A stretch of DNA of 64,000 nucleotides from a virus: IMG/VR virus record IMGVR_UViG_3300045988_105534. One strand, written 5' to 3'. The position numbers and the translations under genes were made by a program. Each line of letters opens with the position of its first letter. Position 1 is the first letter of the stretch. The notes beneath the pieces are model-generated. The model did no database searches and was not told the origin of the DNA. It worked only from the letters and a program-made list of their open reading frames with translations. Shown here one piece after another: positions 8,915 to 63,779 of the stretch.

Positions 8915-9628
8915 ATGGATATCGAACTTACAAAAATGGATTATGTAAACTTTCCTATGGATGAACAATGTTATTCTAATGGAATGTATAATTTTTGGTT
9001 CATTAATAAAGACGTTGCACAAACATTGATCGGTAGATCGATTACCGATAACGAATTTATGTATGAATGTTGTAACAATGTTCGTCATTTAACAAGCAAT
9101 TGTGAATGCATGAATGTTTACGGAGAAGGCGTCTTATGTAATGGAAATACAGGGTTTTTAGACCGTGAATCATTAGGTTTGATTATATGTAGATTAAAAA
9201 ATATTTATGATAATTATTATAAATATTTTGAAAAATTCATGAATCAACAGTTCGATATATTTGTTCACAATTGTCGGAAATTTGAAGCAGAGCATGATTC
9301 GAATACGGTAAGACCTATAACTAAAAAGACACCAGCAGTTGCGAAAAATCCAAAAGGATATATCTATGTTATGAAATGCTGTGGATATTATAAAATAGGT
9401 CGAGCACAAATAGGCAGCACACGATTTGGTGAATATACAAAATTACCAGAAGAACCTGAGTATATTATTAAGCAAATTGTATGTAATTACCAAAAAGTAG
9501 AAATAGCATTACATGAAAGATACAAAGATAAACGGCAAAGAGAAGGAATGTGTGAATGGTTTGAATTGGAAGATTCAAACATAGAAGAAATTAGAGATTT
9601 TGTTAATCAATATGCAGTAGAGGAGTGA
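8915..9628 (+). CDS. T5orf172 / GIY-YIG-like domain protein with Cys-rich N-terminal region
   Basis: C-terminal YIYVMKCCGYYKIGRAQ...EWFELEDSNIEE resembles the T5orf172 (MUG113) domain motif. Confidence 0.5.
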   Translation: MDIELTKMDYVNFPMDEQCYSNGMYNFWFINKDVAQTLIGRSITDNEFMYECCNNVRHLTSNCECMNVYGEGVLCNGNTGFLDRESLGLIICRLKNIYDNYYKYFEKFMNQQFDIFVHNCRKFEAEHDSNTVRPITKKTPAVAKNPKGYIYVMKCCGYYKIGRAQIGSTRFGEYTKLPEEPEYIIKQIVCNYQKVEIALHERYKDKRQREGMCEWFELEDSNIEEIRDFVNQYAVEE

Positions 9629-9634
9629 TTAGTT

Positions 9635-9886
9635 ATGGAAAATAACGAAGTAAAAAGAATTGCAAACATCTTATTCAATATGTCTTTGGGAATGGACTAT
9701 GACACGTTCGTAGATGATTGTAAAGAAGATATGAAAATGCTGACTGAAAGCATTGGAAAATTATCTAAGGCAATCGGGAAATTGTCTAAAGCGGATGATT
9801 CTCTGTTTTATGTATTGCAGAATATTGCAGATAACAACGCAGATATGGAAAATAGATTGGTCAATGCAGATGGATCTATTAATTAA
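9635..9886 (+). CDS. Hypothetical protein (83 aa)
   Basis: GAGGAG Shine-Dalgarno; internal repeat SIGKLSKAIGKLSKA. Confidence 0.55.
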   Translation: MENNEVKRIANILFNMSLGMDYDTFVDDCKEDMKMLTESIGKLSKAIGKLSKADDSLFYVLQNIADNNADMENRLVNADGSIN

Positions 9887-50536: not shown

Positions 50537-50614
50537 AGTTTAGAGCTTTTAGCTCTTTACTCGCTTGATGATTTATAAAACAAAATACTGTCTTTAAAAG
50601 GAGAAATTATACAT

Positions 50615-51823
50615 ATGGAATTACCAGTAATTAACGAAATTAAACCAGATATTAAAAACCTGTCAATCTATCTTAGATCAATTAAAAAGTTCGGAAAAAC
50701 TACATTGTTCAGAGATGTAATTGTTGCAAAATATGGAGATCCGTCATATGGACTTCTCGTACAGTGCGGATTCGAAAAAGGAACAAGGATGTTAGATAAT
50801 ATTAACACTCTGCGTATTACTTCATATGAAGATGCGGTAGAGTTAAAAGAATACTTAATTAACAAAAGAGTATTCAAAAGAGATAAGTCTGGCAAAATTG
50901 TTCGCAATGAAAAGAGAAAACCAGAATATGTTCCAGTAAAACACAATATTCAGATGGTTTGTTTTGATACCGTTGATGAAATTTGTCCATTATTTGAAGA
51001 AGAGACAATCAGGATCAGCAATAAAGAAGGACAGAAAAAGTGCAAAACTATCAACGCTGCTATGGGTGGCTATCAGGCAGGACAGAGATATACAGCAGAC
51101 ATGATCAAAGCTTACATGAGTGATATCGAAGATGCTGGCATTGGTGTTTGGGGAATTGCTCATACAAAATTCAAAACTATCAGAGAAAAAGGTGGCTTAG
51201 AAGAAGACGGATACCAGCAGTTAACATCCAATCTTGTAAGTGCTTATGAATCTGCTTTTGGTGATATCTTTGATGTAACTTTCACTGGTGTAATTGACAG
51301 AAATGTTGAAGTCAGAGGTGAAGGTGATAAAGCTAAGAGATATGCTACAGATGAAATTAGAAAACTTTATTTCCGTGGAACAACATTAATTGACGCTGGT
51401 GGTAGATTTGCTTCTGATGCAGTTCCTGAATATATGGTATTTGACAAAGGAAATATGGGAGAAGATTTCATTGAAGTGGTAGAAGACGGAATGGAGAAAT
51501 CTAAAACAGTTCTTTCTAAAAAAACTAAAAAGCCAACTCCTCAGCCAGAGCCAGAAGATGAGATCGAGGAAGACATCGATGATGTTATTGAAGACGATAT
51601 TACAGAAGCTGACGAAGATTTAATGGAAGATATCGTTGATGATATTGATGAAGATACATCAGACGATTATCCAGAAGATTTAAGAGAACATGTAAAAGAG
51701 TTATGTAAAACTTGTGAAGACGCAGAATTAAAAACAAAAGTCAAAGGAATCATTAAGCAGTATGGAAAACTTAGTGAAGTCGACGATGATGGGTTAAAAG
51801 AAATGTATGATCTGCTGAAATAG
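50615..51823 (+). CDS. Hypothetical protein (402 aa) with degenerate P-loop-like motif and very acidic C-terminal region
   Basis: IKKFGKTTLF ... MVCFDTVDE could be deviant Walker A/B; 60-aa D/E-rich tail. Confidence 0.6.
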   Translation: MELPVINEIKPDIKNLSIYLRSIKKFGKTTLFRDVIVAKYGDPSYGLLVQCGFEKGTRMLDNINTLRITSYEDAVELKEYLINKRVFKRDKSGKIVRNEKRKPEYVPVKHNIQMVCFDTVDEICPLFEEETIRISNKEGQKKCKTINAAMGGYQAGQRYTADMIKAYMSDIEDAGIGVWGIAHTKFKTIREKGGLEEDGYQQLTSNLVSAYESAFGDIFDVTFTGVIDRNVEVRGEGDKAKRYATDEIRKLYFRGTTLIDAGGRFASDAVPEYMVFDKGNMGEDFIEVVEDGMEKSKTVLSKKTKKPTPQPEPEDEIEEDIDDVIEDDITEADEDLMEDIVDDIDEDTSDDYPEDLREHVKELCKTCEDAELKTKVKGIIKQYGKLSEVDDDGLKEMYDLLK

Positions 51824-51834
51824 GAGTCTGAGCA

Positions 51835-52371
51835 ATGCTTGTAAAATGTAGAATTTGCGGCAAAAAAGTAGACAGAAACGAAGCTTTTAAAGTAGCAGTA
51901 GAAGGTAAACCAAATGCCTACTACTGCTCAGAAGCTGAGTATAACAAAATGATGGAGAACCGCAAAAATAGAAATGATACATATTATTGTATTTATGATA
52001 TTTTCGGCTATACGGTAACGAACACTGTATTAAATAAGGAAGTAAATGCTCTTGGCAAGATTTACGGATTTAAGCTGATATTAGAATACTTGCATGACAA
52101 TCAAGAATATTTAACAAGAATTGTTGGGAGAGAATACAATAGCGAATTTGCTAAGATTAAATATTTTTCAGCAATTTTAAAAAATAGTCTGGTTGATTAT
52201 AGGGACTCAGACGATGGAGTTCCACAGAGACAACAGGCTATTGTTAAACATCATATTGTAAGCAAGCAGATCAATGAAAATATCGGAGCTGAAAAAACTA
52301 AATACAAGAAGAAAAAGAAATCTCGTAGATGTATTAACGATATTTTGACGGAAGTTGGTGAGAAAGAATAG
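51835..52371 (+). CDS. Hypothetical protein with N-terminal zinc ribbon (178 aa)
   Basis: CRICGKK...YYC; position upstream of the helicase suggests a loader-type accessory protein (inference only). Confidence 0.55.
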   Translation: MLVKCRICGKKVDRNEAFKVAVEGKPNAYYCSEAEYNKMMENRKNRNDTYYCIYDIFGYTVTNTVLNKEVNALGKIYGFKLILEYLHDNQEYLTRIVGREYNSEFAKIKYFSAILKNSLVDYRDSDDGVPQRQQAIVKHHIVSKQINENIGAEKTKYKKKKKSRRCINDILTEVGEKE

Positions 52372-52427
52372 CAGATTTTGTTGCAGGAGTTAAAGACAAA
52401 TATCCGTCAAAATTATTAAAAGGTCGT

Positions 52428-53918
52428 ATGGAGGCAGAGGGAAATGTAATTAGTTGTTTCTTTAAAGATATGTTGCTTTTGGATGACACTACATTCGAAC
52501 AACACGATTTCATTACAAAAGATGGACTTTTTTACTTTTCTATGCTCAAAAAATTACGTGAACAGGGCTTCTATTCTCTGGATGAAATCACGATTTTATC
52601 CAATCTGTCTAAGAACGCTATAAAAAGATACACTGACATGGGAGGATGGGATTCTATTCAACATCAGATAGATATTATCAACACACAGAATTTTGATGTG
52701 TATATCGACATTCTGTATAGAGAAAACACTATGCTGAAGATGTATGATGATGGATTTAACCTGTTCAAAGAGATAGACATTGACGGCAAGAAAATCGTAC
52801 CAGTAACACTTTTCAGAAGAATGACTGCCGAGGAAGTTACGGATTGGTATGATGCAAGACTAAGTACATATGGTACGGGATATTCCAGTAAGATTCTGGA
52901 AGAAGAAGAAATTGATTTTGATGATGATTTTATTGATTCCTGCGTGGAAGGTGAAGAAAATGGAGTTCCATTTGATGTGGCAGGGATTGATATTAATGGC
53001 GAAGAAATGAATTGCTTTCCGTTTCTATCCAGACAGATCATGGGTATTCTTGAGGGAACACTCACTATGATGGGCGGATTCAGTAGTGCAGGTAAGTCAA
53101 CATGGTTTATTACTTTGCTTATGGCGTTACTGAATTATGATAGGAAAGTGCTAATTATTTCAAATGAAGAAAAAGTAAAGAAATTTAAAGTCAAGTTTAT
53201 GATCTGGCTTTTAGCGAAGCATAATCGTTATTTTAAGCTGACAAAGAAGAAAATGATGTCTGGGCAGATTGATGATGCAAGCCGAAGAGAACTAAAAGAC
53301 GTGCAACAGTTATGGCGAGAACAGTATAAGGGTAGAGTGAAATTCTTACTTATCAATGATGCTGATATGACTGTTGTCAAGAAGAAAATCAGAGAGCATG
53401 TACTTCGCTATGGATATGACACAGTGTTGTATGACACTTTTAAGATTCAAGAAGGAGATTTTAAAGGCAATCGTACTGACTTATCTTTGGTTCATGACAG
53501 TCGAGAGTTAGATAAACTTGCGAAAAAATATAACATTATCATGTTGGCATCTGTGCAGTTAGCAGAGTATATGAGAGGAAGGCTATTTCTTGATAGTTCT
53601 GTTCTTTCAAACTCTAAACAGATCAAAGAAGTATTAGAGAATCTTTTCTTGATGAGGACTGTATATGATGAAGAACTTGATGAAAAGAGTAAATTCTATT
53701 GTCGTCCATTTAGGCTAAAAAAAGTTAATGATAAATGGATTGAGGAAGAATATCATCCTGATCGTACTGCGGTGTGGAGAGCTTTATTTGTTGAGAAATG
53801 TCGAAGCGGTTCAAACTCATCAGATACAGGAGTTGGTTATCTACTTAAATTCGATGGAGATCATTGTATCTTTAGAGAAGTTGCGCAGGCAAGATTTAAA
53901 CATGGAGAAATCAAATAA
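52428..53918 (+). CDS. dnaB: DnaB-like replicative DNA helicase
   Basis: Walker A GGFSSAGKSTW in a RecA-like C-terminal domain; DnaB-like N-terminal domain; 496 aa. Confidence 0.75.
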   Translation: MEAEGNVISCFFKDMLLLDDTTFEQHDFITKDGLFYFSMLKKLREQGFYSLDEITILSNLSKNAIKRYTDMGGWDSIQHQIDIINTQNFDVYIDILYRENTMLKMYDDGFNLFKEIDIDGKKIVPVTLFRRMTAEEVTDWYDARLSTYGTGYSSKILEEEEIDFDDDFIDSCVEGEENGVPFDVAGIDINGEEMNCFPFLSRQIMGILEGTLTMMGGFSSAGKSTWFITLLMALLNYDRKVLIISNEEKVKKFKVKFMIWLLAKHNRYFKLTKKKMMSGQIDDASRRELKDVQQLWREQYKGRVKFLLINDADMTVVKKKIREHVLRYGYDTVLYDTFKIQEGDFKGNRTDLSLVHDSRELDKLAKKYNIIMLASVQLAEYMRGRLFLDSSVLSNSKQIKEVLENLFLMRTVYDEELDEKSKFYCRPFRLKKVNDKWIEEEYHPDRTAVWRALFVEKCRSGSNSSDTGVGYLLKFDGDHCIFREVAQARFKHGEIK

Positions 53919-53939
53919 TTAAAATGTGCGGTGTGATAT

Positions 53940-54968
53940 ATGTTAGACAATATAAAAAAAGAACTATTGTCTAATCCTGAAAAAATAAGAGAAGTCTTGG
54001 AGCATTTTGATTATTATCATGTAGTGATCAGAAACACATATATGTCATTTGGTCGAGATGAGGTCTCTTCAAAGAAGTCCATAGTAATCAATCTGAAAAA
54101 TAACAAAGCGTTGTTTGTGCATGATTATGCTAGAGCAATCCAAAAAGATTTGTTCTCATATATTATGCAGCAACGTGGAGTTGATTTTGCAGAGGTTTTA
54201 GGAGTTGTTAAAAACATCTTAGGGATTACTGATTACTATGATTTCTTTGATAGACAAGGTATTTTTGGCGGATTTTATGAAAGGATTAGAAATCACAATG
54301 TAGTTCGAATCCAAACTTATGATGAATCTATATTAGATAAATACAATAATGTAGGGAATTTAAGATTCCTTAAAGATAATATATCACTTGAAGCACAAAG
54401 AACTTTTGGCATTCGGTTTGATACATCATCTCAAGGGATCGCAATTCCGATTAGAAATCAATTAGGACAACTAATTGGCGTAAAAGAAAGATTTAACTAT
54501 GACGTTGAAGATGGTGAAATGAAATATTTCTACGATGTTCCGTGTCAAATGTCTCAAACATTATATGGATATTCTCAGAATTATCAGTATTTAGCCAACG
54601 GTGTTGTGTTGATATTTGAGGCAGAGAAATCTGTAATGCAGTGTTTTACATATGGAATTAGAAACTGTGTGGCACTTGGTAGTGGAACAATCAGCAAGAA
54701 ACAGGTGCAATTATTATTGGAATTAAATCCTAAAAAAGTAATATTTATGCATGACGTTGGCTATGATATTAAGAATATCATGAGAAATATTGACATGGTA
54801 AAAGGATATTCAAGATTTGCTGAGATTGAGTTAGGATACTGGGACTTTAATTTAAGTGAGTATTCCAATAAGGTATCACCGTCCGATATGGGAAAAGAAA
54901 AGTTAAATTACATATTAGAAAACGAAATAAAAATGATAGGGGATGAAGACGTCGAAGAAGAAATATAA
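53940..54968 (+). CDS. Toprim-domain DNA primase (DnaG-like catalytic core)
   Basis: Toprim motifs IFEAEKSVM (Glu) and FMHDVGYD (DxD). Confidence 0.6.
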   Translation: MLDNIKKELLSNPEKIREVLEHFDYYHVVIRNTYMSFGRDEVSSKKSIVINLKNNKALFVHDYARAIQKDLFSYIMQQRGVDFAEVLGVVKNILGITDYYDFFDRQGIFGGFYERIRNHNVVRIQTYDESILDKYNNVGNLRFLKDNISLEAQRTFGIRFDTSSQGIAIPIRNQLGQLIGVKERFNYDVEDGEMKYFYDVPCQMSQTLYGYSQNYQYLANGVVLIFEAEKSVMQCFTYGIRNCVALGSGTISKKQVQLLLELNPKKVIFMHDVGYDIKNIMRNIDMVKGYSRFAEIELGYWDFNLSEYSNKVSPSDMGKEKLNYILENEIKMIGDEDVEEEI

Positions 54969-56562
54969 CATTTTGAACGATTGCAGAGGACTTTTTGAAG
55001 ATGAGGTATTTGAAATTATCATGCAGGAGCGTGGTATTGACGATCCAGAACATTTTCTAAATCCTACGGAAGATGATTTACTTTCTCTTGATGACTTAAA
55101 AAATATTGATAAAGCATACAGACTCGTGATGAGTGCGGTGAATGAAGATAAACGTATTGCAGTACATTTTGATACAGATACTGACGGCATCACATCTGGT
55201 GCCGTTATGACACGATATTTAAAAAACATGACAGAAAATCCAGTAGATGTATACATTAACCGAGGCAAACAGCATGGATTAGCAAATCAGGACATTGCTA
55301 AGTTTTATGGGTATGATTTACTGATTGTCGTTGATAGTTTGGATAAAGACGAGACTCAGTATAAGGATTTAAAAGAAACAGGAGTTGATGTGATTGTGTT
55401 AGACCACCATGCCATCGATCCAGATGTTCCTTATGACAACTATTGCACATTAGTTTCTTCTCAGAGAGAATATGAAAATCCACAGTTATCTGGTGCAGGT
55501 GTTGTCTGGAAGTTTTGCAAGTATATTGATGAGCAGAATGGTACAGATTATGCAGATAATTTGGTCGATCTAGCAGGCGTTGGGCTGATTGCAGATATGA
55601 TGGATATGAGAGTAATGGAGAATCGTTACATTGTATCCGAAGCTTTGAAAGAAATTAGAAATCCTGCGATTAAGAAGATTATTGGTGGATTTGAATTCAA
55701 CAGCACAGCAGTTGCTTTTAGTATTGCACCGTTGGTTAATGCTGCAAACAGAATGGATCAGAATGAAATTGCTCTAAATGCTTTCCTTGAAGATGACAAT
55801 AAAAAGTTACGAGGATATATTAAACAATTAAAGCAATGCAAAGAAGACCAAAATGAAGAGGTCGCACAGCTGATGCCAATGATTGCGGAACAGTGTGAAG
55901 CTCAGAGTGATAAAAAGATGATCACAACTTTTATCGACACTGATTATGGTATTTCTGGGTTAATTGGAAACAAATTGCTTGAAAAATACCAGAAGCCGAT
56001 TCTTGTGCTAAAGAAAAATGAAGATACATATGCAGGATCTATGAGAGCAGTTGGTGTAAAAGACTTCCGACAGATGTGTAATAACAGTCAGTTGGCTGAA
56101 GCAAATGGACATGAACTTGCCAGTGGTATTGAAATTCCTAGAAAGAACTTTGCTGAGTTCACCTCTTATATAGAAGAAACTCTTCCAGATAAGCCAGAAG
56201 ATACAACAGTTGATGTCGATATTATGCTTGATATTTCAGACATCACAAGAAAAATGGTTGACATGATTAAGAAAATTGATCGTATTTCTGGGCAAGGATT
56301 TAAACCTGTAAGAGTTTATATTGAAGAGATTGACGACTATGACATTGGTCAGATGAGCAATTATAAACATCTTGTCCTGAAACCATGTAACAATGATAAA
56401 TTGTGGATCATTAAATGGAACTATGATGGATCGTTTGAGGATATGGAAGACCATTCTATGATGAATGATGAGTTTTGTGCAGTTACTACACTTGATTGCG
56501 GATTCTTTGGAAGAAAGTTTGTGCTGAAAGCTGTGTGTGATTCACTTGAAGAGGTGGGATGA
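54943..56562 (+). CDS. RecJ-like DHH-family single-stranded DNA exonuclease (start uncertain; alternative ATG at 55021)
   Basis: AVHFDTDTDGITSGAV and VLDHHAID are DHH motifs; RecJ-like linker; 513-539 aa. Confidence 0.7.
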   Translation: MKTSKKKYNILNDCRGLFEDEVFEIIMQERGIDDPEHFLNPTEDDLLSLDDLKNIDKAYRLVMSAVNEDKRIAVHFDTDTDGITSGAVMTRYLKNMTENPVDVYINRGKQHGLANQDIAKFYGYDLLIVVDSLDKDETQYKDLKETGVDVIVLDHHAIDPDVPYDNYCTLVSSQREYENPQLSGAGVVWKFCKYIDEQNGTDYADNLVDLAGVGLIADMMDMRVMENRYIVSEALKEIRNPAIKKIIGGFEFNSTAVAFSIAPLVNAANRMDQNEIALNAFLEDDNKKLRGYIKQLKQCKEDQNEEVAQLMPMIAEQCEAQSDKKMITTFIDTDYGISGLIGNKLLEKYQKPILVLKKNEDTYAGSMRAVGVKDFRQMCNNSQLAEANGHELASGIEIPRKNFAEFTSYIEETLPDKPEDTTVDVDIMLDISDITRKMVDMIKKIDRISGQGFKPVRVYIEEIDDYDIGQMSNYKHLVLKPCNNDKLWIIKWNYDGSFEDMEDHSMMNDEFCAVTTLDCGFFGRKFVLKAVCDSLEEVG

Positions 56563-57824
56563 TTATGGCAGGAAAAGAAGTATTTTGTTCAGTCTGCGGT
56601 TTATCATCTACTTTGGACGGACATTTTTGGAAAGAAAAGAAGTTGTGCAACAGACACAATATGCAGTTAGAAAAACATGGAAAACTGTTAGATAAAGATA
56701 TAGTGATCCCTAAAAAGAGACATAGATGGACTCCAGAAGAAGAAGTCAGATTAGAAGAGTTGTATAAACAAGGAGTTTCTTTTGAAAAAATTAGTAAACA
56801 AATGAATCTATCCGTGGCAGCCATAGCGGCTCGAAGTCGTCATTTGAATCTTGGCAATAAGTATATGAGGTCTAATAATCCTAATTTTAAAGCCACATAT
56901 CAGGATTATGATTGGTGTTATGAAAGATATGTTGTTAAGGGAATGACTCATCAAGAAATGGCAGATGAATGTGGTGTCTCGTTAAGAGTTATTCAGAAAT
57001 GGTGTTCTGAAGTTCATAAATTAAATTGTTGGACTTTCAAAAACAATAAGACATTAACCGATAAACAGTATCAAATTATTTTATTTGGCACATTAGGGGA
57101 TGGGCATATTGATAAAAGAGAGACGCAACCTTTGTATATTGAATGTCATTCTATAGCAGAAAAGGATTACGTGTTTTGGAAATATGAAGAATTAAAAGAT
57201 TTATGTAACTCTGAGCCAAAGTATTATGAAGGTGGCTATAAAGATTTTGGTTCTGGTACAAAGTATTGGTGTAAACCACATTACAGATTTGAGACAAGAA
57301 TTATTAATCAATTGAAGGACATTCGAGACATGCCAAGAATCAATAAGATTTGGCAATTGAATGAATTTGGATTATCTCTTCATTGCTTAGACGATGGATG
57401 CAGAGGTAAATCAGCGTGGGAATTATGTTTGGCAGAATATACTCAGCAAGAAATTGATTTATATATCAAGCTGTGTAAAAAGAGATTTGGGTTATATGCT
57501 AAACAGCAGACAGATAAAAGATATATAAGATTTGATTCAGATTCAAGTAGAATTATTGATCAAATTATTTTAAACAATATTCCTAATTCGCTTGACATTA
57601 TCAAAAAGAAGATATTAGAAAACGATAAAATTTCTAAAAAAGTAAGATACATTTATGTTGTCATGCAGAACGGAGAACAGATTGGTTTATCTACATATTG
57701 TAGATCTCATGGTATTCCATATGAAAAGACAAGAAAATATGTCATTGAGCACAATATCTCTCGAATTCAAGAAGCTGATCTACTAAATAGATTAAAAGCT
57801 GGAGGATTAATGAATGCGGTATAA
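56559..57824 (+). CDS. Free-standing LAGLIDADG-family homing endonuclease with N-terminal zinc-ribbon/HTH region
   Basis: Two LAGLIDADG-like motifs, ILFGTLGDGHI and LHCLDDGCRGKS; N-terminal CSVCG...CNRH and an HTH-like RWTPEEEVRLEELYKQGVSFEKIS. Confidence 0.6.
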   Translation: MIMAGKEVFCSVCGLSSTLDGHFWKEKKLCNRHNMQLEKHGKLLDKDIVIPKKRHRWTPEEEVRLEELYKQGVSFEKISKQMNLSVAAIAARSRHLNLGNKYMRSNNPNFKATYQDYDWCYERYVVKGMTHQEMADECGVSLRVIQKWCSEVHKLNCWTFKNNKTLTDKQYQIILFGTLGDGHIDKRETQPLYIECHSIAEKDYVFWKYEELKDLCNSEPKYYEGGYKDFGSGTKYWCKPHYRFETRIINQLKDIRDMPRINKIWQLNEFGLSLHCLDDGCRGKSAWELCLAEYTQQEIDLYIKLCKKRFGLYAKQQTDKRYIRFDSDSSRIIDQIILNNIPNSLDIIKKKILENDKISKKVRYIYVVMQNGEQIGLSTYCRSHGIPYEKTRKYVIEHNISRIQEADLLNRLKAGGLMNAV

Positions 57825-60800
57825 CAATTATCATAAACACGATCATGTATCAAATATCTTTACCCCAGATACAAATACTAAACAAGAAGAGTATATTCTT
57901 AAAGCATTGGAGTATGGGCATACAAGTTATTATAGTACGAATCATGGCAGTTTTGGAGATATCTTTGAAGCCAGAACATTGTGTAATAAGTATGGATTGC
58001 GTTGTATTGCAGGCATCGAAGGATATATTGTCCCAAATGCGTCGCAAAAAGACAAAAGGAATTATCATATTATAGTGATCCCTAAAACCGATGAAGCCAG
58101 AAAGAAGATGAATTATGTATCAAGTATGGCAAACATCAAAGGGTTTTATTATAAACCAAGATTTTTTTTATCTGATTTATTAAAACTTGATCCCAATGAT
58201 GTTTATATTACAACTGCATGTGTAGCAGGATTATTACGAGATGAGGATTCAATTAATGAGATTTTTATGCCTCTATATAAGCATTTTAAAGAAAATGTAA
58301 TGCTAGAAGTTCAGACTCATGATGATCCGTTGCAAATTGAAATCAATAAAAAGGCAATATATCTGTCTGATCAATATGGGTTAAGCTTAATTGCTGCAAA
58401 TGATTCACACTATATTGACGAATCAGGCAAAGAAGAACGTCTGGAATTATTGCGAGGTAAACATATCAATTACGGCAGTGAAGACGATTTTATATTAGAT
58501 TATCCTACTGCTGAAACAATGATTGAAAGATTCAAAAAACAAGGCGTTTTGACAGATAGACAAATCTCAGATGCATTAAATAACACATTGTTGTTTGATG
58601 AATGTGAAGAAATACAACTCGATTATTCAATTAAAATGCCTACGATTTATCCTAACTTGACTCCCGAACAAAGAGTGGGTCTTCTAAAAAAAGAAGTAAA
58701 TAAACGGTTCAAGGAGATTCGAAAAGAAGAACATATTGAAGGAGAAGAGTTTAAAAAATATAAAGATGGAATTCGATATGAGATGAAAATCATCGAGGAT
58801 ACTAACGATGAAATACATACAGCGGACTATTTTTTGTTTAATGAGAAAAATGTAGATCTTGCAGTTAATAAATATGGTGGTGTATTGACTCGTGGTGGAA
58901 GAGGTAGTTGCGGTTCCTTCTATATAAATAGGATATTGGGAATGACACAACTAGATAGATTTAAAATTAATCTTCCGCTTTTCCCAGACAGATTTGCTTC
59001 TACTGCCAGATTGCTAGAGAATCGCTCATTGCCCGATATAGATTTTAACGTAAAATCCCAAGAACCATTTATTAAAGCTTCAAGGGAATTGCTTGGTGAA
59101 CACGGGTGTTATCCAATGTATGCACCAGGAACCATGCAAATATCTGAAGCATTTAGAAATGTATGTAGATCTAAGAATATGTCATTTGACGAATTTAATC
59201 ATGTGGCAAAAAATCTGGAAGAATATCAAGATGATCCGAAATGGAAACCGATTATCGAAGAGGCAAATCGCTATGTTGGAACAATTATATCTGGTTCTGT
59301 ACATCCTTGCGCCCATATTTTAAGCAACACTAATTTGCTTTATGAGTACGGTGTTACTCGTTTAGGTGAAAACGTATGTGTTTTAATTACTTCATCTGAA
59401 GCAGATGAATATAAGGTACTTAAAAACGATTATCTTATCGTCACGGTCTGGAAGCTTATTGACGAAACATTTAAAGAGATTGGAATTCCGATTATTAAGG
59501 CAAATGAATTATTGGATAAAATTAAAGATGATCAGAGAATATGGGATTTATTTAAAAATGGTATTACATGCACTTTAAATCAGGTTGATAGCGACAATGG
59601 ATGTAGACAAGCAAAACAGTATGGTATTTCGTCATTTGAGGATGGCGCCCATATTGCAGCAGCCATAAGACCGTCTTTTGATTCATGGAGAGAACAGTTT
59701 TTAGACAGAAAACCATATACAACTGGTTCAGATCAGCTTGACGATGTTTTGAAAGATACTCATGGATACATTTTATTTCAAGAATCATTAATGCAATATT
59801 TTGACTGGTTGGGGGTTAGTCCAGCTGAATCTATTGGTTTAATTAAGAAAATTTCCAAGAAAAAAATTAAACAATCGGATTTTGATAATCTTGAGGAAAG
59901 AATCAAAAAGCAATGGATTATTAATACTGGCTCAGAAGAAATGTTTTCCGAAACATGGCATTTGGTACAAAGTTGTATGAGTTACGGATTTTGTTCAGCC
60001 CATGCAGCAGCAACCTCATTGGACATGTGTTATGGAGCATATCTAAAGGTCAATTATCCTTACGAATACTACAGTGTTTGCTTCAATAATTACGTTGGAG
60101 ACAAAGAACGAACGAATAAACTAACAAATGAGTTAGAGTATTTTGGTATTAAATTAAGCGACATTAAGTTTAGACACTCTAACTCAAAATATTCTTATGA
60201 TAAAGAGGGTCATACAATATTCAAAGGCATGTCGTCCATTAAATTTGTTGGAGATAATGTTGGAGAAGAACTGTATGCATTACGAGATAATCAATATGAT
60301 TCTTTTATAGATTTGTTGCAAGACATATCTAATACATCTGTCAATTCTAAACAGTTAGATATTTTAATTAAATTAGATTTCTTTTCTGAATTTGGAGACA
60401 TTAATTATCTACTTAAACAGGTTGAGTGCTATGACAAATTCTATGGCAGAAAACAGTTTACAATTTCGAAGCTCCAAAAAGAAGGCGAAGATATTGAATT
60501 AATCAAAAAGTATTGTCAGAAACAGACAGAAAAAACATTGAAAGAATTTGATTATATTGGATTTTTGAAAGATATGACATCAAGTATGGCATATTCACTA
60601 GTTTCAATAACTGAACGGATGGATTATCAGAAAGAATATATTGGTTACATCAGTTACATTAACCCTAACATTGGCAAGCGATATTACTATGTCAAAGATT
60701 TATCTGTAACAAAATCCATCGTTAACATTCAGTTATATGAAATTTACTCTGGAAAAACACAGAAAGTAAAAATGTGGACAACCCAATATAAGAAGAACCC

Positions 60801-60978
60801 ATTCGATGAAGGAGATATTCTATATCTGAAATCAGTTGAGAAGAAACATAAAAAAGAACCAACTGGGGAGATCAATACAAAAACAGGAAAGAAAATCTAC
60901 AAAGATGTACCAGATAAATTTGAGTTTTGGCTTAAGAATTTCACTATTAAAAATGACGCAAAGGAGGAATTAGTATAA
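57814..60978 (+). CDS. dnaE: DNA polymerase III alpha subunit (DnaE-type) with N-terminal PHP domain
   Basis: 1054 aa. PHP motifs NYHKHDHVSN, YSTNHGS, IVPKTDEA; polymerase core follows. Confidence 0.8.
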   Translation: MRYNNYHKHDHVSNIFTPDTNTKQEEYILKALEYGHTSYYSTNHGSFGDIFEARTLCNKYGLRCIAGIEGYIVPNASQKDKRNYHIIVIPKTDEARKKMNYVSSMANIKGFYYKPRFFLSDLLKLDPNDVYITTACVAGLLRDEDSINEIFMPLYKHFKENVMLEVQTHDDPLQIEINKKAIYLSDQYGLSLIAANDSHYIDESGKEERLELLRGKHINYGSEDDFILDYPTAETMIERFKKQGVLTDRQISDALNNTLLFDECEEIQLDYSIKMPTIYPNLTPEQRVGLLKKEVNKRFKEIRKEEHIEGEEFKKYKDGIRYEMKIIEDTNDEIHTADYFLFNEKNVDLAVNKYGGVLTRGGRGSCGSFYINRILGMTQLDRFKINLPLFPDRFASTARLLENRSLPDIDFNVKSQEPFIKASRELLGEHGCYPMYAPGTMQISEAFRNVCRSKNMSFDEFNHVAKNLEEYQDDPKWKPIIEEANRYVGTIISGSVHPCAHILSNTNLLYEYGVTRLGENVCVLITSSEADEYKVLKNDYLIVTVWKLIDETFKEIGIPIIKANELLDKIKDDQRIWDLFKNGITCTLNQVDSDNGCRQAKQYGISSFEDGAHIAAAIRPSFDSWREQFLDRKPYTTGSDQLDDVLKDTHGYILFQESLMQYFDWLGVSPAESIGLIKKISKKKIKQSDFDNLEERIKKQWIINTGSEEMFSETWHLVQSCMSYGFCSAHAAATSLDMCYGAYLKVNYPYEYYSVCFNNYVGDKERTNKLTNELEYFGIKLSDIKFRHSNSKYSYDKEGHTIFKGMSSIKFVGDNVGEELYALRDNQYDSFIDLLQDISNTSVNSKQLDILIKLDFFSEFGDINYLLKQVECYDKFYGRKQFTISKLQKEGEDIELIKKYCQKQTEKTLKEFDYIGFLKDMTSSMAYSLVSITERMDYQKEYIGYISYINPNIGKRYYYVKDLSVTKSIVNIQLYEIYSGKTQKVKMWTTQYKKNPFDEGDILYLKSVEKKHKKEPTGEINTKTGKKIYKDVPDKFEFWLKNFTIKNDAKEELV

Positions 60979-61028
60979 TTCAATTTTACAAATATACCGA
61001 CAAGGAAATCAAAGAACTCATCAGCTCG

Positions 61029-61511
61029 ATGACAATCCTGGTCGACACAAGGGAGCAAAAGGCTGATCATATCATAGGTTACTTCGATAGAAAAAGCGTA
61101 AATCATAAAAAGAAAGCATTGAATTATGGAGACTACAGTTTCCTGATTCCTGCAAATGAGAAGCTTGGTATTCAGAGAGATATGTATTTTGACAGCAAAG
61201 TATGTGTTGAGCGCAAAGGAAGTCTTGAAGAAATCAGTGGCAATTTATCAAAAGATCGTGCCAGATTTGAAAAAGAGCTAAGTCTTGCACCAGAGACAAA
61301 AGTTATCTTACTTGAAAATGCCAATTATTCAGATATTGCAGATGGCAATTACAACACGCAGTATAACAAGAAATCATTCATTGGATCATTGCATAGCTTC
61401 TGGTTCAAATACGATGTGCCGATATTCTTCATGCCAGATAATAAATATTCTGGGCTGTTTATTAGATTATATTTCGAGTATTACTTTAAAAATTATTTAA
61501 AAGGGAAATGA
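61029..61511 (+). CDS. ERCC4-type (XPF/Mus81/Hef-like) nuclease domain protein
   Basis: ILVDTREQ ... GDYSF ... VCVERKGSLEE matches the ERCC4 signature. The ATG lacks a close Shine-Dalgarno; a strong AAGGAGGAA at 60961 might drive an upstream non-ATG start. Confidence 0.55.
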   Translation: MTILVDTREQKADHIIGYFDRKSVNHKKKALNYGDYSFLIPANEKLGIQRDMYFDSKVCVERKGSLEEISGNLSKDRARFEKELSLAPETKVILLENANYSDIADGNYNTQYNKKSFIGSLHSFWFKYDVPIFFMPDNKYSGLFIRLYFEYYFKNYLKGK

Positions 61512-61526
61512 GGTGTTGCCTAAATA

Positions 61527-63779
61527 ATGGAGAGTCAGACATGCGGAAAGGTATGCGAGTTTGAAATGATTCCTACATATCAGATATTTTATGATGAAGA
61601 ATCAATGTTTGGTATCTATGCGTTTTGTACAAAAGACCAGATACCACAATTCAGTCCATACAATGATAATAAATTTGATGACTCAGGAGATAAAGAATAT
61701 GTTGCAAGTAAACTTGTTGGAGAAGTTCAACAGTTATATATTGGGACAAAGTATAATGTAAAAGCGACATGTATTTATTCTCAAAAATATCATGAATATC
61801 AATATAAACCGATTTCGGTTGTTGCAGACGTTCCAAAAACACAGACTGATCAGTTAATGTTTTTAAAAACACAAGCGAAAGAATCAATTGCTGAAAGCTT
61901 GCTTGCTGAATATCCAAATATTATTGAGGATGTTATGGCAGGAAAATGTAAGACGATTGACACATCTATGATTAAAGGACTTGGCAACAAGACATGGGCG
62001 AAGCTCAGAGAGAAGATCATTAATAATTATGTGATTTCTGAGGTTGTAGTTATGCTACAGCCTCATGGCATTACTTTTAATATGATTAAGAAATTGGTAG
62101 AAGCTGAGCCAGATCCAGAAAAGTTAAAGTATAAAATCAACACAAATCCTTACATTTTAACTAAGATCAGAGGTCTTGGATTTAAGAAAGTTGATGATAT
62201 TGCTTTAAAGATCCGTCCAGAGTTGAGAGATTCTAAGTATCGACTTGATTATTTTATGACGTATTATTTAACGAATCTTGGCGAAAGTGACGGACATACA
62301 TATATGGCGATTGCCACATTGCGATCAGAAGTTAGTACAACAGTTGGAGAGTGTCTGCATATATTTGACGATTATGTTGAAAATGATTTTCCTCCAGACA
62401 TCTATGTTAGTGGCGAACTAATTGGTTTGAAAAAGTACCATGACACAGAAATGAATATACTGGCATTGTTGCAAGAACGCAGAGATACTAATTCTACCAA
62501 GAAGAAAGAGATAATCACTGTAAACGAAATTGGACAAGTTATTGCTGAAGTTGAAAAAGAAGAAGGATTTACTTTTAGTGAAGAACAAAACAAAGGTATT
62601 TATACTGCATTACAAACAAATGTTGTCTTGATCAGTGGTGAAGCTGGAACTGGTAAAACTACTTTATTAAAGCCGATCATCAGATGTTATAAGAAAAGAA
62701 ATTACAGCATTGCTGCATGTGCGTTATCTGCGAAAGCAGCACAGAGAATCCAAGAGGCAACAGGATTAGAAGCAAAAACTATTCATAGATTGCTTGAGGC
62801 ACAAGGCGTAGATTCATTTATGCACGATGCCAACAATCCGTTGCCAATAGATGTAGTTCTTTTAGATGAGGCAAGTATGGTTAATGCAGGATTGTTTTAT
62901 CAGTTGCTTTTAGCAATTCGTCCAGGTACAAAAATTATTATTAGCGGAGATCATATGCAGTTACCACCAATTGGATATGGTAACATTTTCTCTGATCTAC
63001 TCAAAATGGATGAGTTAGATTCAGTGCAATTAACGAAGCCAATGAGACAAGCAGAAAAGTCTGGTATTCTTAGTGATGCTAGAAAAGTGCGTAGAGCAAT
63101 TTCTCCAATTGAGGATTTTAGTGCTAAACAAGTTCATGGAGAGCTACATGATATGTTTTACATTTTCAGAAATAATCGTGAGAATATTTTTAATTTGGTT
63201 GTAAAGCAGTTCATGACGTGTGTTAAACAAGACGGTATGGATAATGTGGTTGTAATCTCTCCTCGTAAGTCAGGTTGCATAAACTCTACAGAAGAACTTA
63301 ATGTAGCAATTCAGAAAGAATTGTATAAAAATAAATCCAATGCAAGGTTTGTTACATATGGCAAAACAAAGAAGTTTTATGTGGGAGATAAAGTGCTTCA
63401 AACCAGTAATGACTATGAAAGAAACACATTTAATGGAGATATTGGATACATTACTGGCATTAATTATGATAAGAAAGTTGTTCATGCCATGATGAATCCA
63501 GACATGGATAAGAAGATGATTGAATATTCTTTTGCTCAGTTAGGACAACTTCAATTGGCATATGCATTAACAACGCATAAGCTTCAAGGATCGGCTGCTC
63601 AAACTGTAATTGGCATCATTGACAACACACATTACAAATTGCTTGATAACTGTATGCTATATACAATGTTAACACGAGCTAAGAAAAGATTTGCGCTCCT
63701 TGCAGAGCCAGAAGCGTTTAAGAGATGTATCGTGACAAATCATAATAAGAGGCGCACATGGTTAAGCTTAAAAAATTAA
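61527..63779 (+). CDS. recD: RecD-like (RecD2/TraA family) SF1 ATP-dependent DNA helicase
   Basis: Walker A VVLISGEAGTGKTT; Walker B VVLLDEASMV; C-terminal YALTTHKLQGSAAQTVI motif; 750 aa. Confidence 0.8.
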   Translation: MESQTCGKVCEFEMIPTYQIFYDEESMFGIYAFCTKDQIPQFSPYNDNKFDDSGDKEYVASKLVGEVQQLYIGTKYNVKATCIYSQKYHEYQYKPISVVADVPKTQTDQLMFLKTQAKESIAESLLAEYPNIIEDVMAGKCKTIDTSMIKGLGNKTWAKLREKIINNYVISEVVVMLQPHGITFNMIKKLVEAEPDPEKLKYKINTNPYILTKIRGLGFKKVDDIALKIRPELRDSKYRLDYFMTYYLTNLGESDGHTYMAIATLRSEVSTTVGECLHIFDDYVENDFPPDIYVSGELIGLKKYHDTEMNILALLQERRDTNSTKKKEIITVNEIGQVIAEVEKEEGFTFSEEQNKGIYTALQTNVVLISGEAGTGKTTLLKPIIRCYKKRNYSIAACALSAKAAQRIQEATGLEAKTIHRLLEAQGVDSFMHDANNPLPIDVVLLDEASMVNAGLFYQLLLAIRPGTKIIISGDHMQLPPIGYGNIFSDLLKMDELDSVQLTKPMRQAEKSGILSDARKVRRAISPIEDFSAKQVHGELHDMFYIFRNNRENIFNLVVKQFMTCVKQDGMDNVVVISPRKSGCINSTEELNVAIQKELYKNKSNARFVTYGKTKKFYVGDKVLQTSNDYERNTFNGDIGYITGINYDKKVVHAMMNPDMDKKMIEYSFAQLGQLQLAYALTTHKLQGSAAQTVIGIIDNTHYKLLDNCMLYTMLTRAKKRFALLAEPEAFKRCIVTNHNKRRTWLSLKN

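Follow-up and report, generated by a model that had tools for sequence, protein, structure and literature searches.

The gene that separates a recJ-like exonuclease gene from dnaE in the phage genome described here is, in our reading, a free-standing homing-type LAGLIDADG endonuclease gene that sits in the phage replication operon and travels with its dnaE. It is a 421-amino-acid (aa) open reading frame (ORF) on a stretch of virus DNA of 64,000 nucleotides (nt), IMG/VR record IMGVR_UViG_3300045988_105534 (hereafter, the window). We give this reading a probability of about 0.72, based on comparisons of sequences and predicted structures. An earlier note, made from the letters of the sequence, had proposed a free-standing LAGLIDADG endonuclease between the two genes; a match to PF03161, an I-SceI-like fold, intact neighbors, and the lack of any intron or intein bear it out. 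The element is of a known kind, a homing endonuclease gene (HEG) near a polymerase gene, in a family that is uncharacterized. Its notable aspects are the add-on DNA-binding modules, the exclusive association with dnaE, and the polymerase swap in which it takes part.

The Pfam family LAGLIDADG_2 (PF03161) matches residues 174-330 of the protein (E=1.6e-11; 44.9 bits against a cutoff of 25) over profile positions 3-165 of 168, and the PHROG family phrog_11023, "homing endonuclease with LAGLIDADG motif", matches at E=1.7e-8. Both LAGLIDADG-like blocks noticed earlier, ILFGTLGDGHI and LHCLDDGCRGKS, were recovered, and as judged by profile scores the two-motif match is far beyond chance. The earlier note had looked to LAGLIDADG_1, LAGLIDADG_3, or NUMOD domains. 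The family found above threshold is instead LAGLIDADG_2, and the Pfam search at E<=1 returned no LAGLIDADG_1, LAGLIDADG_3, or NUMOD domain (NUMOD1, NUMOD3, NUMOD4). Motif counts were taken over 120 retrieved relatives and residue invariance over an alignment of 48. GDGHI occurs in all 120 relatives, L[DE]D[GA] in 119, and the two motifs together in 119, and the residues G180-D181-G182-H183-I184 and L277-D278-D279 are invariant among the 48. Catalytic competence of the predicted protein is likely.

Searches of PDB sequences, with the single sequence and with a family profile, found no LAGLIDADG chain (the sole match was the small helix-turn-helix [HTH] protein 2lvs), so the link to I-SceI required a comparison of folds. 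An AlphaFold2 model built on 48 relatives has a mean predicted local distance difference test (pLDDT) score of 91.3. For this predicted model, the best Foldseek match in the PDB is I-SceI (1r7m; E=3.7e-9; template modeling [TM] score normalized to the target, 0.66), followed by I-WcaI (6x1j; E=6.7e-8), with the top matches spanning E values of 4e-9 to 7e-8 and target TM scores of 0.64-0.67. Lower matches include the bI3 maturase (2ab5; E=1.7e-5), WhiA (3hyi, E=1.3e-4; 8dy7), and I-DmoI. In the model, helices 168-177 and 269-279 lead into D181 and D278/D279, and the second half of the model has an alpha-beta-beta-alpha-beta-beta-alpha topology; the predicted structure is that of a pseudo-dimeric LAGLIDADG fold with this arrangement. 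Alignment by hhalign placed LGDGHI on LGDAYI of I-SceI (D44) and LDDG on MDDGG (D144/D145). I-SceI-like monomers of the LAGLIDADG_2 type cleave a site of ~18-22 bp in a Mg2+-dependent reaction and leave 4-nt 3' overhangs.

The nuclease core is flanked by additional modules. The zinc-ribbon and HTH-like segments that the earlier note saw near the N terminus are present: the residues C10-x2-C13...C30-x2-H33 form the first, and the HTH segments have sub-threshold Pfam matches and clear PHROG matches. The zinc-ribbon-like pattern (CxxC...C[NGS][KR]H) occurs in zero copies in 59, one copy in 28, and two copies in 33 of the 120 relatives. HTH module 1, with model helices at residues 59-70, 75-82, and 86-95, has sub-threshold matches to Myb_DNA-binding, HTH_38, and GcrA and matches phrog_323 at E=2.5e-12. 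Within HTH module 2, an HTH-like segment at residues 120-150 scores 23.0 bits against Sigma70_r4_2, below the cutoff of 25.7, and the invariant residues of this module include N106, Y114, Q115, W119, C120, and W148. The HTH segments also match the DNA-binding parts of HNH-endonuclease PHROGs (phrog_8446, E=2e-8, and 7545). The C-terminal module (residues 355-415) had no profile match; it is presumed to be an extra DNA-binding domain. Multi-module layouts are common in phage GIY-YIG and HNH homing enzymes. To our knowledge, such a layout around a LAGLIDADG core is unusual among LAGLIDADG enzymes.

The ORF lies outside any intron or intein, and the recJ and dnaE genes of the window are both full length and without interruption. 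With a reading frame, ribosome-binding site, and start of its own and with intact neighbors, it has the layout of a free-standing HEG. The overlaps of a few nucleotides that had been noticed at both ends amount to 4 nt with recJ (ATGA) and 11 nt with dnaE. They had been described as in frame, which is incorrect: by coordinate modulo 3, the two neighbors use frame 1, whereas the ORF uses frame 0. The second ATG, at 56565, is at a better distance from the Shine-Dalgarno-like AGAGGTGGG (56550..56558) than the one at 56559. From this sequence context the true start is probably M3 (ATG at 56565), giving a protein of 419 aa, and the upstream overlap with recJ would therefore disappear. The ribosome-binding site of dnaE, GGAGG at 57801..57805, lies inside the last codons of the ORF.

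The ORF is sporadically present among close relatives of the window. We compared seventeen IMG/VR sibling loci with RecJ proteins 97-99% identical, 16 of which are complete. Architectures obtained with tblastn fall into three arrangements: (A) recJ, ORF, and dnaE type 1; (B) recJ followed directly by dnaE type 2 (~40% identical at the aa level), with no ORF; and (C) as in B, with dnaE2 split by a 1142-bp insert. The ORF is absent from 7 of the 16 complete loci (L013, L015, L021, L025, L026, L020, and L023). All seven carry dnaE type 2 between RecJ and ERCC4-domain genes whose products are 97-98% and 97-100% identical, respectively; thus, the siblings without the ORF differ in dnaE too (40%). 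Among more distant relatives, recJ directly adjoins dnaE in L044 and L046. The outcome that the earlier note had named as refuting its proposal, namely an ORF carried at the same position by all relatives with no empty-site alleles, is therefore not what we found. The comparison of recJ-dnaE junctions proposed there did uncover relatives without the ORF (the seven siblings, L044, and L046), but it did not yield a simple empty site with the same dnaE in the closest relatives.

What varies between siblings is a cassette of 4.1 kb that comprises the ORF and dnaE, and not an ORF-only insertion, because BLASTN homology between arrangements A and B stops at 56567, after the common ribosome-binding site and ATGATTATG, and is picked up again at 60676 or 60705, among the ~100 final codons of dnaE. 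By segment, DnaE types 1 and 2 are 27-47% identical over residues 1-955 and 95% identical over residues 956-1054. dnaE type 2 and the ORF use one ribosome-binding site embedded in recJ and one ATGATTATG start. When the starts are compared (56565..56567 in the window, MIMAGK...; 7623..7625 in L013 and 7617..7625 in L020, MIMYED...), the edge of the cassette lies exactly behind the start codon. The locus thus provides a clean natural case of an endonuclease gene at the edge of an essential-gene swap, in which two DNA polymerases only 40% identical alternate in phages that are otherwise 97-99% identical.

Within arrangement A, ORF alleles ~100, 96, 91, and 79% identical occupy one slot, and all four are full length (421 aa). 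Compared with the 79% allele (L002 type), the interior of the ORF is ~80% identical at the nt level, and the flanks of this block (Table 1) are ~99.5% identical. NG86 estimates of synonymous divergence (dS) between the window and L002 are 0.85 for the ORF, 0.03 for recJ, and 0.046 for the distal part of dnaE, and the ratio of nonsynonymous to synonymous divergence (dN/dS) of the ORF is 0.15. The dS contrast and this ratio indicate that the ORF has a history separate from and much deeper than that of its flanks, with function maintained, and the pattern of substitutions shows the encoded protein to be under purifying selection. Its history is thus discordant with that of the flanking genes, which points to horizontal exchange.

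Divergence is also elevated at the 5' end of dnaE, where the first 660 nt have a dS of 0.42 between the window and L002. This end of the gene contains a patchy polymorphic tract (Table 1) that is a candidate co-conversion tract and a candidate target region. L019 is a mosaic that combines a window-type ORF with an L002-type dnaE 5' tract. Gene conversion around a break would leave such a product, and ordinary recombination could give the same. At 57925..57942 (dnaE codons 38-43, PHP motif II), the three sibling haplotypes differ at 9 nt and 4 aa. The motif reads YYSTNHG in the window, YSTVNHG in L002, and YYTVNHG in L012, and the family consensus, YFTTNHG, is otherwise near-invariant. This cluster looks like target-site escape, and we regard the site as a putative target and a lead.

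The association with dnaE extends far beyond the siblings. Homologues 59-70% identical occupy the same slot between recJ and dnaE (L033, L034, L036, and L050; P0019, at L090-L094; P0017, at L095-L096), and the clades with a filled slot have RecJ and DnaE proteins 60-66% and 80-84% identical to those of the window. Even members with 42-49% identity directly precede a dnaE, here one of 26-54% identity, and in some distant members a PDDEXK nuclease replaces recJ as the upstream gene. In L100-L101 and L104-L105, the 42-49% identity of the ORF exceeds that of the adjacent DnaE (26-30%). All family members with an inspected locus are directly upstream of a dnaE. Because every sampled member has this position, the insertion is, on comparative evidence, old, and the turnover of alleles is recent. 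The earlier note had taken the insertion itself to be recent; we reject that proposal, given the filled slots of the related clades and the position of the 42-49% members.

The slot is not reserved for the LAGLIDADG gene. A 224-aa HNH endonuclease (phrog_374, E=1.6e-39) takes its place in L037 (5337..6011), L047, L117, and L118, next to a DnaE 80% identical to that of the window. In addition, P0058 (L188, 4501..5553) corresponds to P0019 minus 73 aa in frame; it has lost motif 2 and is otherwise 99-100% identical. The nuclease appears to be dispensable, because this deletion allele circulates. The allele was observed on two contigs, and the endpoints of the deletion share an "LC" microhomology at the protein level.

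Many insertions were observed in related dnaE genes, at three recurrent positions: DnaE residue ~364 (L073, L081, and L083), 539/540 (L076 and L082), and 408/409 (L077-L080). Those at ~364 are in frame (intein-like), and those at the other positions contain stops (intron-like). The dnaE of L100 is split into 753 and 314 aa. In L020 (8889..10030), and also in L023, an exact 1142-bp insertion interrupts the catalytic PDID motif of dnaE2 at the equivalent of window dnaE codons 408/409 and encodes a 229-aa GIY-YIG/NUMOD3 endonuclease (9059..9748 in L020). The edges of this insert are group I-like (T is the last base of the upstream exon, and G that of the insert), and an Rfam search of the L020 insert found no group I intron at E<=0.1; it looks intron-like by its exact boundaries alone. 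Rival polymerase alleles are each linked to an endonuclease of their own, a LAGLIDADG gene with dnaE1 and the GIY-YIG insert in some dnaE2. In L104, a T5orf172 (GIY-YIG-like) gene (9031..9672) lies directly downstream of dnaE and the LAGLIDADG gene lies upstream, forming a two-sided bracket like that of a HEG island. Mobile elements seem to have a hotspot in the dnaE genes of these phages.

Table 1. Features of the endonuclease locus in the window
Feature	Position	Strand	Basis or detail
LAGLIDADG endonuclease ORF, 421 aa	56559..57824	+	ORF list; PF03161; AlphaFold2 model; Foldseek
Upstream neighbor, RecJ-like DHH/DHHA1 exonuclease, 539 aa	54943..56562	+	Pfam DHH E=6.7e-18; phrog_2484 E=1.4e-111
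Downstream neighbor, DnaE-type Pol III alpha (type 1), 1054 aa, uninterrupted	57814..60978	+	Pfam PHP, DNA_pol3_alpha, finger, HHH_6; phrog_405 E=3e-194
Shine-Dalgarno-like AGAGGTGGG (56550..56558) plus ATGATTATG, within/after recJ 3' end	56550..56567	+	Sequence; L013 and L020 junctions; BLAST breakpoints
Zinc-ribbon-like module, C10-x2-C13...C30-x2-H33	56586..56657	+	Translation; pLDDT ~91; metal binding predicted
HTH module 1, three-helix, Myb/SANT-like, aa 52-104	56712..56870	+	Pfam, PHROG, model
HTH module 2, three-helix, sigma-70 region 4-like, highly conserved, aa 105-165	56871..57053	+	Pfam, PHROG, conservation
Double-motif (monomeric, I-SceI-like) LAGLIDADG core, aa 166-345	57054..57593	+	Pfam match, hhalign, motif conservation, model
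Motif 1, ILFGTLGDGHI, aa 174-184	57078..57110	+	Putative catalytic D181 at 57099..57101
Motif 2, LHCLDDGCRGKS, aa 274-285	57378..57413	+	Putative catalytic D279 at 57393..57395
C-terminal beta-beta-alpha-alpha-beta-alpha module, aa 355-415	57621..57803	+	Model secondary structure, pLDDT 84-89
Alternative cassette, ORF plus ~955 codons of dnaE type 1, 4.1 kb	56568..60675	+	tblastn, BLASTN breakpoints, per-segment DnaE identity
Allelic divergence block, ~20% nt divergent from L002-type (79%) allele	56617..57670	+	Sliding identity; 30-nt mismatch profile, sharp edges
Patchy polymorphic tract at dnaE 5' end, three haplotypes, sparser changes to ~58460	57850..58210	+	Haplotype table

We suggest the following mechanism for a homing-type endonuclease at this position. 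In a mixed infection, the enzyme would cut both DNA strands at a specific site within the replicase region of relatives without the ORF or with another allele, most likely inside dnaE. Recombinational repair from genomes that carry the endonuclease would then copy the ORF together with the adjacent dnaE. Between siblings that each carry an allele, repair would leave a patchy conversion tract at the 5' end of dnaE. Against siblings with dnaE type 2, it would drag in the whole 4.1-kb cassette, because homology is available only in recJ and the last ~100 codons of dnaE. That the enzyme targets the polymerase gene and brings about marker exclusion, as the earlier note had suggested, is plausible on indirect evidence. 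HEGs are known to cluster at DNA polymerase genes, cognate HEGs are interchangeable, and essential cargo genes can be flanked by HEGs (PMC10448857).

Several observations weigh against homing as the explanation for the gene. In the window clade, every phage with dnaE type 1 has the ORF (9 complete sibling loci from IMG/VR, 6 from metagenomes, and 9 retrieved by look-up of the exact protein), and no plain empty site, with the same dnaE and no ORF, was found for this clade in IMG/VR or in one metagenome scan. The boundaries of the cassette would be equally expected from any homologous recombination. A deep co-conversion signal, in the form of higher N-terminal DnaE similarity in distant phages that carry the ORF than in those without it, was looked for, and none was found. 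Synteny with dnaE that is strict down to 26% DnaE identity, the scarcity of decayed copies, and purifying selection all exceed what the classic sequence of invasion, decay, and loss predicts, and a gene that is useful to the phage could show the same features. Finally, a scan for promoters and terminators found neither enrichment nor dedicated signals around the ORF, which speaks against a promoter or terminator of its own; for this reason, the ORF appears to be co-transcribed with the replication genes.

The main rival explanation, which we consider unlikely, is that the ORF is no selfish homing gene and encodes a domesticated LAGLIDADG factor that binds or nicks specific DNA sequences for the DnaE-based replication of the phage or its regulation (for instance, an initiator with origin-binding or nicking activity, or a regulator resembling WhiA). 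Such a role would fit the placement of every sampled member directly before dnaE, where the junctions are translationally coupled even if DnaE identity is down to 26-30%, and it would fit the dN/dS of 0.15, the intactness of 119 of 120 members, and the several HTH modules that flank the core as they do in WhiA, itself among the fold matches; no dedicated initiator is evident in the replication module. Domestication is hard to reconcile with siblings whose replication genes are 97-99% identical and that do without the ORF, with an unrelated HNH endonuclease in the same slot, with recJ abutting dnaE in L044 and L046, and with the circulation of a natural motif-2 deletion. The catalytic acidic residues are invariant here, whereas domestication of the WhiA type generally loses them, and the synonymous divergence is discordant with that of the flanks. 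A catalytically competent nuclease that has been co-opted as a partner of the DnaE replicase, either as a site-specific nickase or initiator or as a weapon against rival polymerase alleles, is likewise a doubtful proposition. If true, it would explain the constant position 5' of dnaE across polymerases 26-99% identical, the purifying selection, and the near-absence of decay. The exchange of dnaE1 plus nuclease for dnaE2 in 97-99% identical phages would then represent a nuclease-driven replacement of an essential replicase.

Alternatively, the ORF could be an inactive relic, a former HEG that no longer cleaves and hitch-hikes in the operon. The ORF is fixed in all siblings with dnaE type 1, so no target is left in that lineage; one related clade has a deletion allele; and HEGs are, by the textbook account of their life cycle, expected to decay once fixed (PMC13619312). 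We find a relic improbable because the dN/dS is 0.15, over a dS of 0.85; moreover, invariance extends to both catalytic motifs and many further positions in members down to ~45% identity, and none of the four alleles in the slot is truncated. By far the least probable reading is that of a LAGLIDADG maturase that helps to splice an intron in a neighboring gene. It can draw on the bI3 maturase among the fold matches and on the intron-like insertions in dnaE of relatives, but recJ and dnaE of the window are uninterrupted, the ORF is inside no insertion, and the intron-like insert sits in dnaE2 siblings that lack the ORF, accompanied by its own GIY-YIG gene. The maturase reading was rejected, as the window locus has no intron. 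We retain a free-standing homing-type endonuclease gene as the most probable interpretation of the ORF.

The source of the window is an uncultured human-gut phage of ~140-170 kb. Near-identical contigs were found in human-gut metagenomes and among IMG/VR phage contigs (~82-199 kb). There is no close cultured relative, given that megablast matched the recJ-ORF-dnaE region to none of 50,697 phage records. The DnaE protein is at most 42% identical to DnaEs of Clostridium/Clostridioides phages, such as phiCD211 and c-st. For the ORF protein, tblastn against the same records gave five weak matches in three phages, and a scan of 185,579 species genomes gave 2 matches, one of them on a contig of a Clostridiaceae metagenome-assembled genome. 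The host is probably a gut member of the Clostridia. The family comprises at least 284 protein clusters at E<=0.001 in a large database. It thus appears to be a family of I-SceI-type monomeric meganucleases in gut phages, with almost no members from cultured phages and no characterized member, and it may be a source of new long-site nucleases because of the unusual add-on DNA-binding modules. For annotation, such proteins should be named LAGLIDADG_2 homing-type endonucleases instead of hypothetical proteins.

The replication module of the window extends over ~50600..63779 and encodes AAA_24, YorH-like, and DnaB_C helicase proteins, a 342-aa protein, the RecJ-like exonuclease, the ORF product, DnaE, an ERCC4-domain nuclease, and a RecD2-like helicase. 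It appears similar to the yorG-yorL module of SPbeta. In some siblings, homology is interrupted at ~50621..51530, and identity falls to 75% in a patch near 51530..51729.

Among characterized enzymes, the protein most resembles I-SceI and I-WcaI. It shares with them the PF03161 family, the best structural matches, a core of ~180 aa, and two acidic-ended LAGLIDADG helices that align with I-SceI D44 and D145. However, I-SceI and I-WcaI are enzymes of yeast mitochondrial group I introns, whereas the ORF is free-standing in a phage operon, and sequence identity is only ~17%. Relative to I-SceI, the protein has ~165 extra N-terminal and ~70 extra C-terminal residues, which make up the zinc ribbon, the two HTHs, and the C-terminal module. 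The closest predicted viral structures (BFVD, E=2.5e-15) are the "putative DNA endonuclease" of Bacillus phage PBC2, Sophrita gp149, and a protein of Enterococcus phage iF6_57, which are also the only proteins matched by tblastn among the phage records. Their genes are likewise free-standing, uncharacterized, and located in nucleotide-metabolism or replication regions. In contrast to the ORF product, these proteins have 237-250 aa, are 25-30% identical over about half of the query, and lack the N-terminal zinc ribbon, the first HTH module, and the C-terminal module, and their genes adjoin ribonucleotide reductase, dUTPase, or kinase genes, not dnaE.

WhiA also combines a LAGLIDADG scaffold with a sigma-70 region 4-like HTH and is among the fold matches. 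WhiA is a bacterial transcription factor with a LAGLIDADG fold that has lost the catalytic acidic residues and is inherited vertically. In contrast to this domesticated regulator, the ORF product has D181 and D279 as invariant residues, and its gene occurs in some siblings and is missing from others.

Parallels also come from free-standing phage HEGs and HEG islands, such as the T4 seg and mob genes and the T5orf172 and HNH genes of ICP1 (Barth et al. 2023, PMC10448857), in which a HEG is the neighbor of a replication gene that is essential and marks where a recombination block ends. As in those systems, the cognate HEGs are diverged homologues or of another class (here, alleles 79-96% identical and a replacement by HNH), and the cargo is an essential gene. 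The class of enzyme differs, being LAGLIDADG here and GIY-YIG, T5orf172, or HNH there. The cassette behaves much as the HEG-island model describes, but HEG islands are two-sided, whereas dnaE of the window has a HEG on one side only, and bracketing was seen only in the distant L104. The gene downstream of dnaE encodes the ERCC4-domain protein, with 96-100% conservation among all siblings regardless of their dnaE type. A working model is offered by I-HmuI and I-HmuII of the Bacillus phages SPO1 and SP82. These intron-encoded HNH nickases in the DNA polymerase gene reportedly attack the rival allele, and exclusion is said to have been demonstrated by Goodrich-Blair and Shub in 1996. In the window and its siblings, in a case known from sequences, alternative polymerase alleles would likewise confront each other in related phages, each with its own endonuclease.

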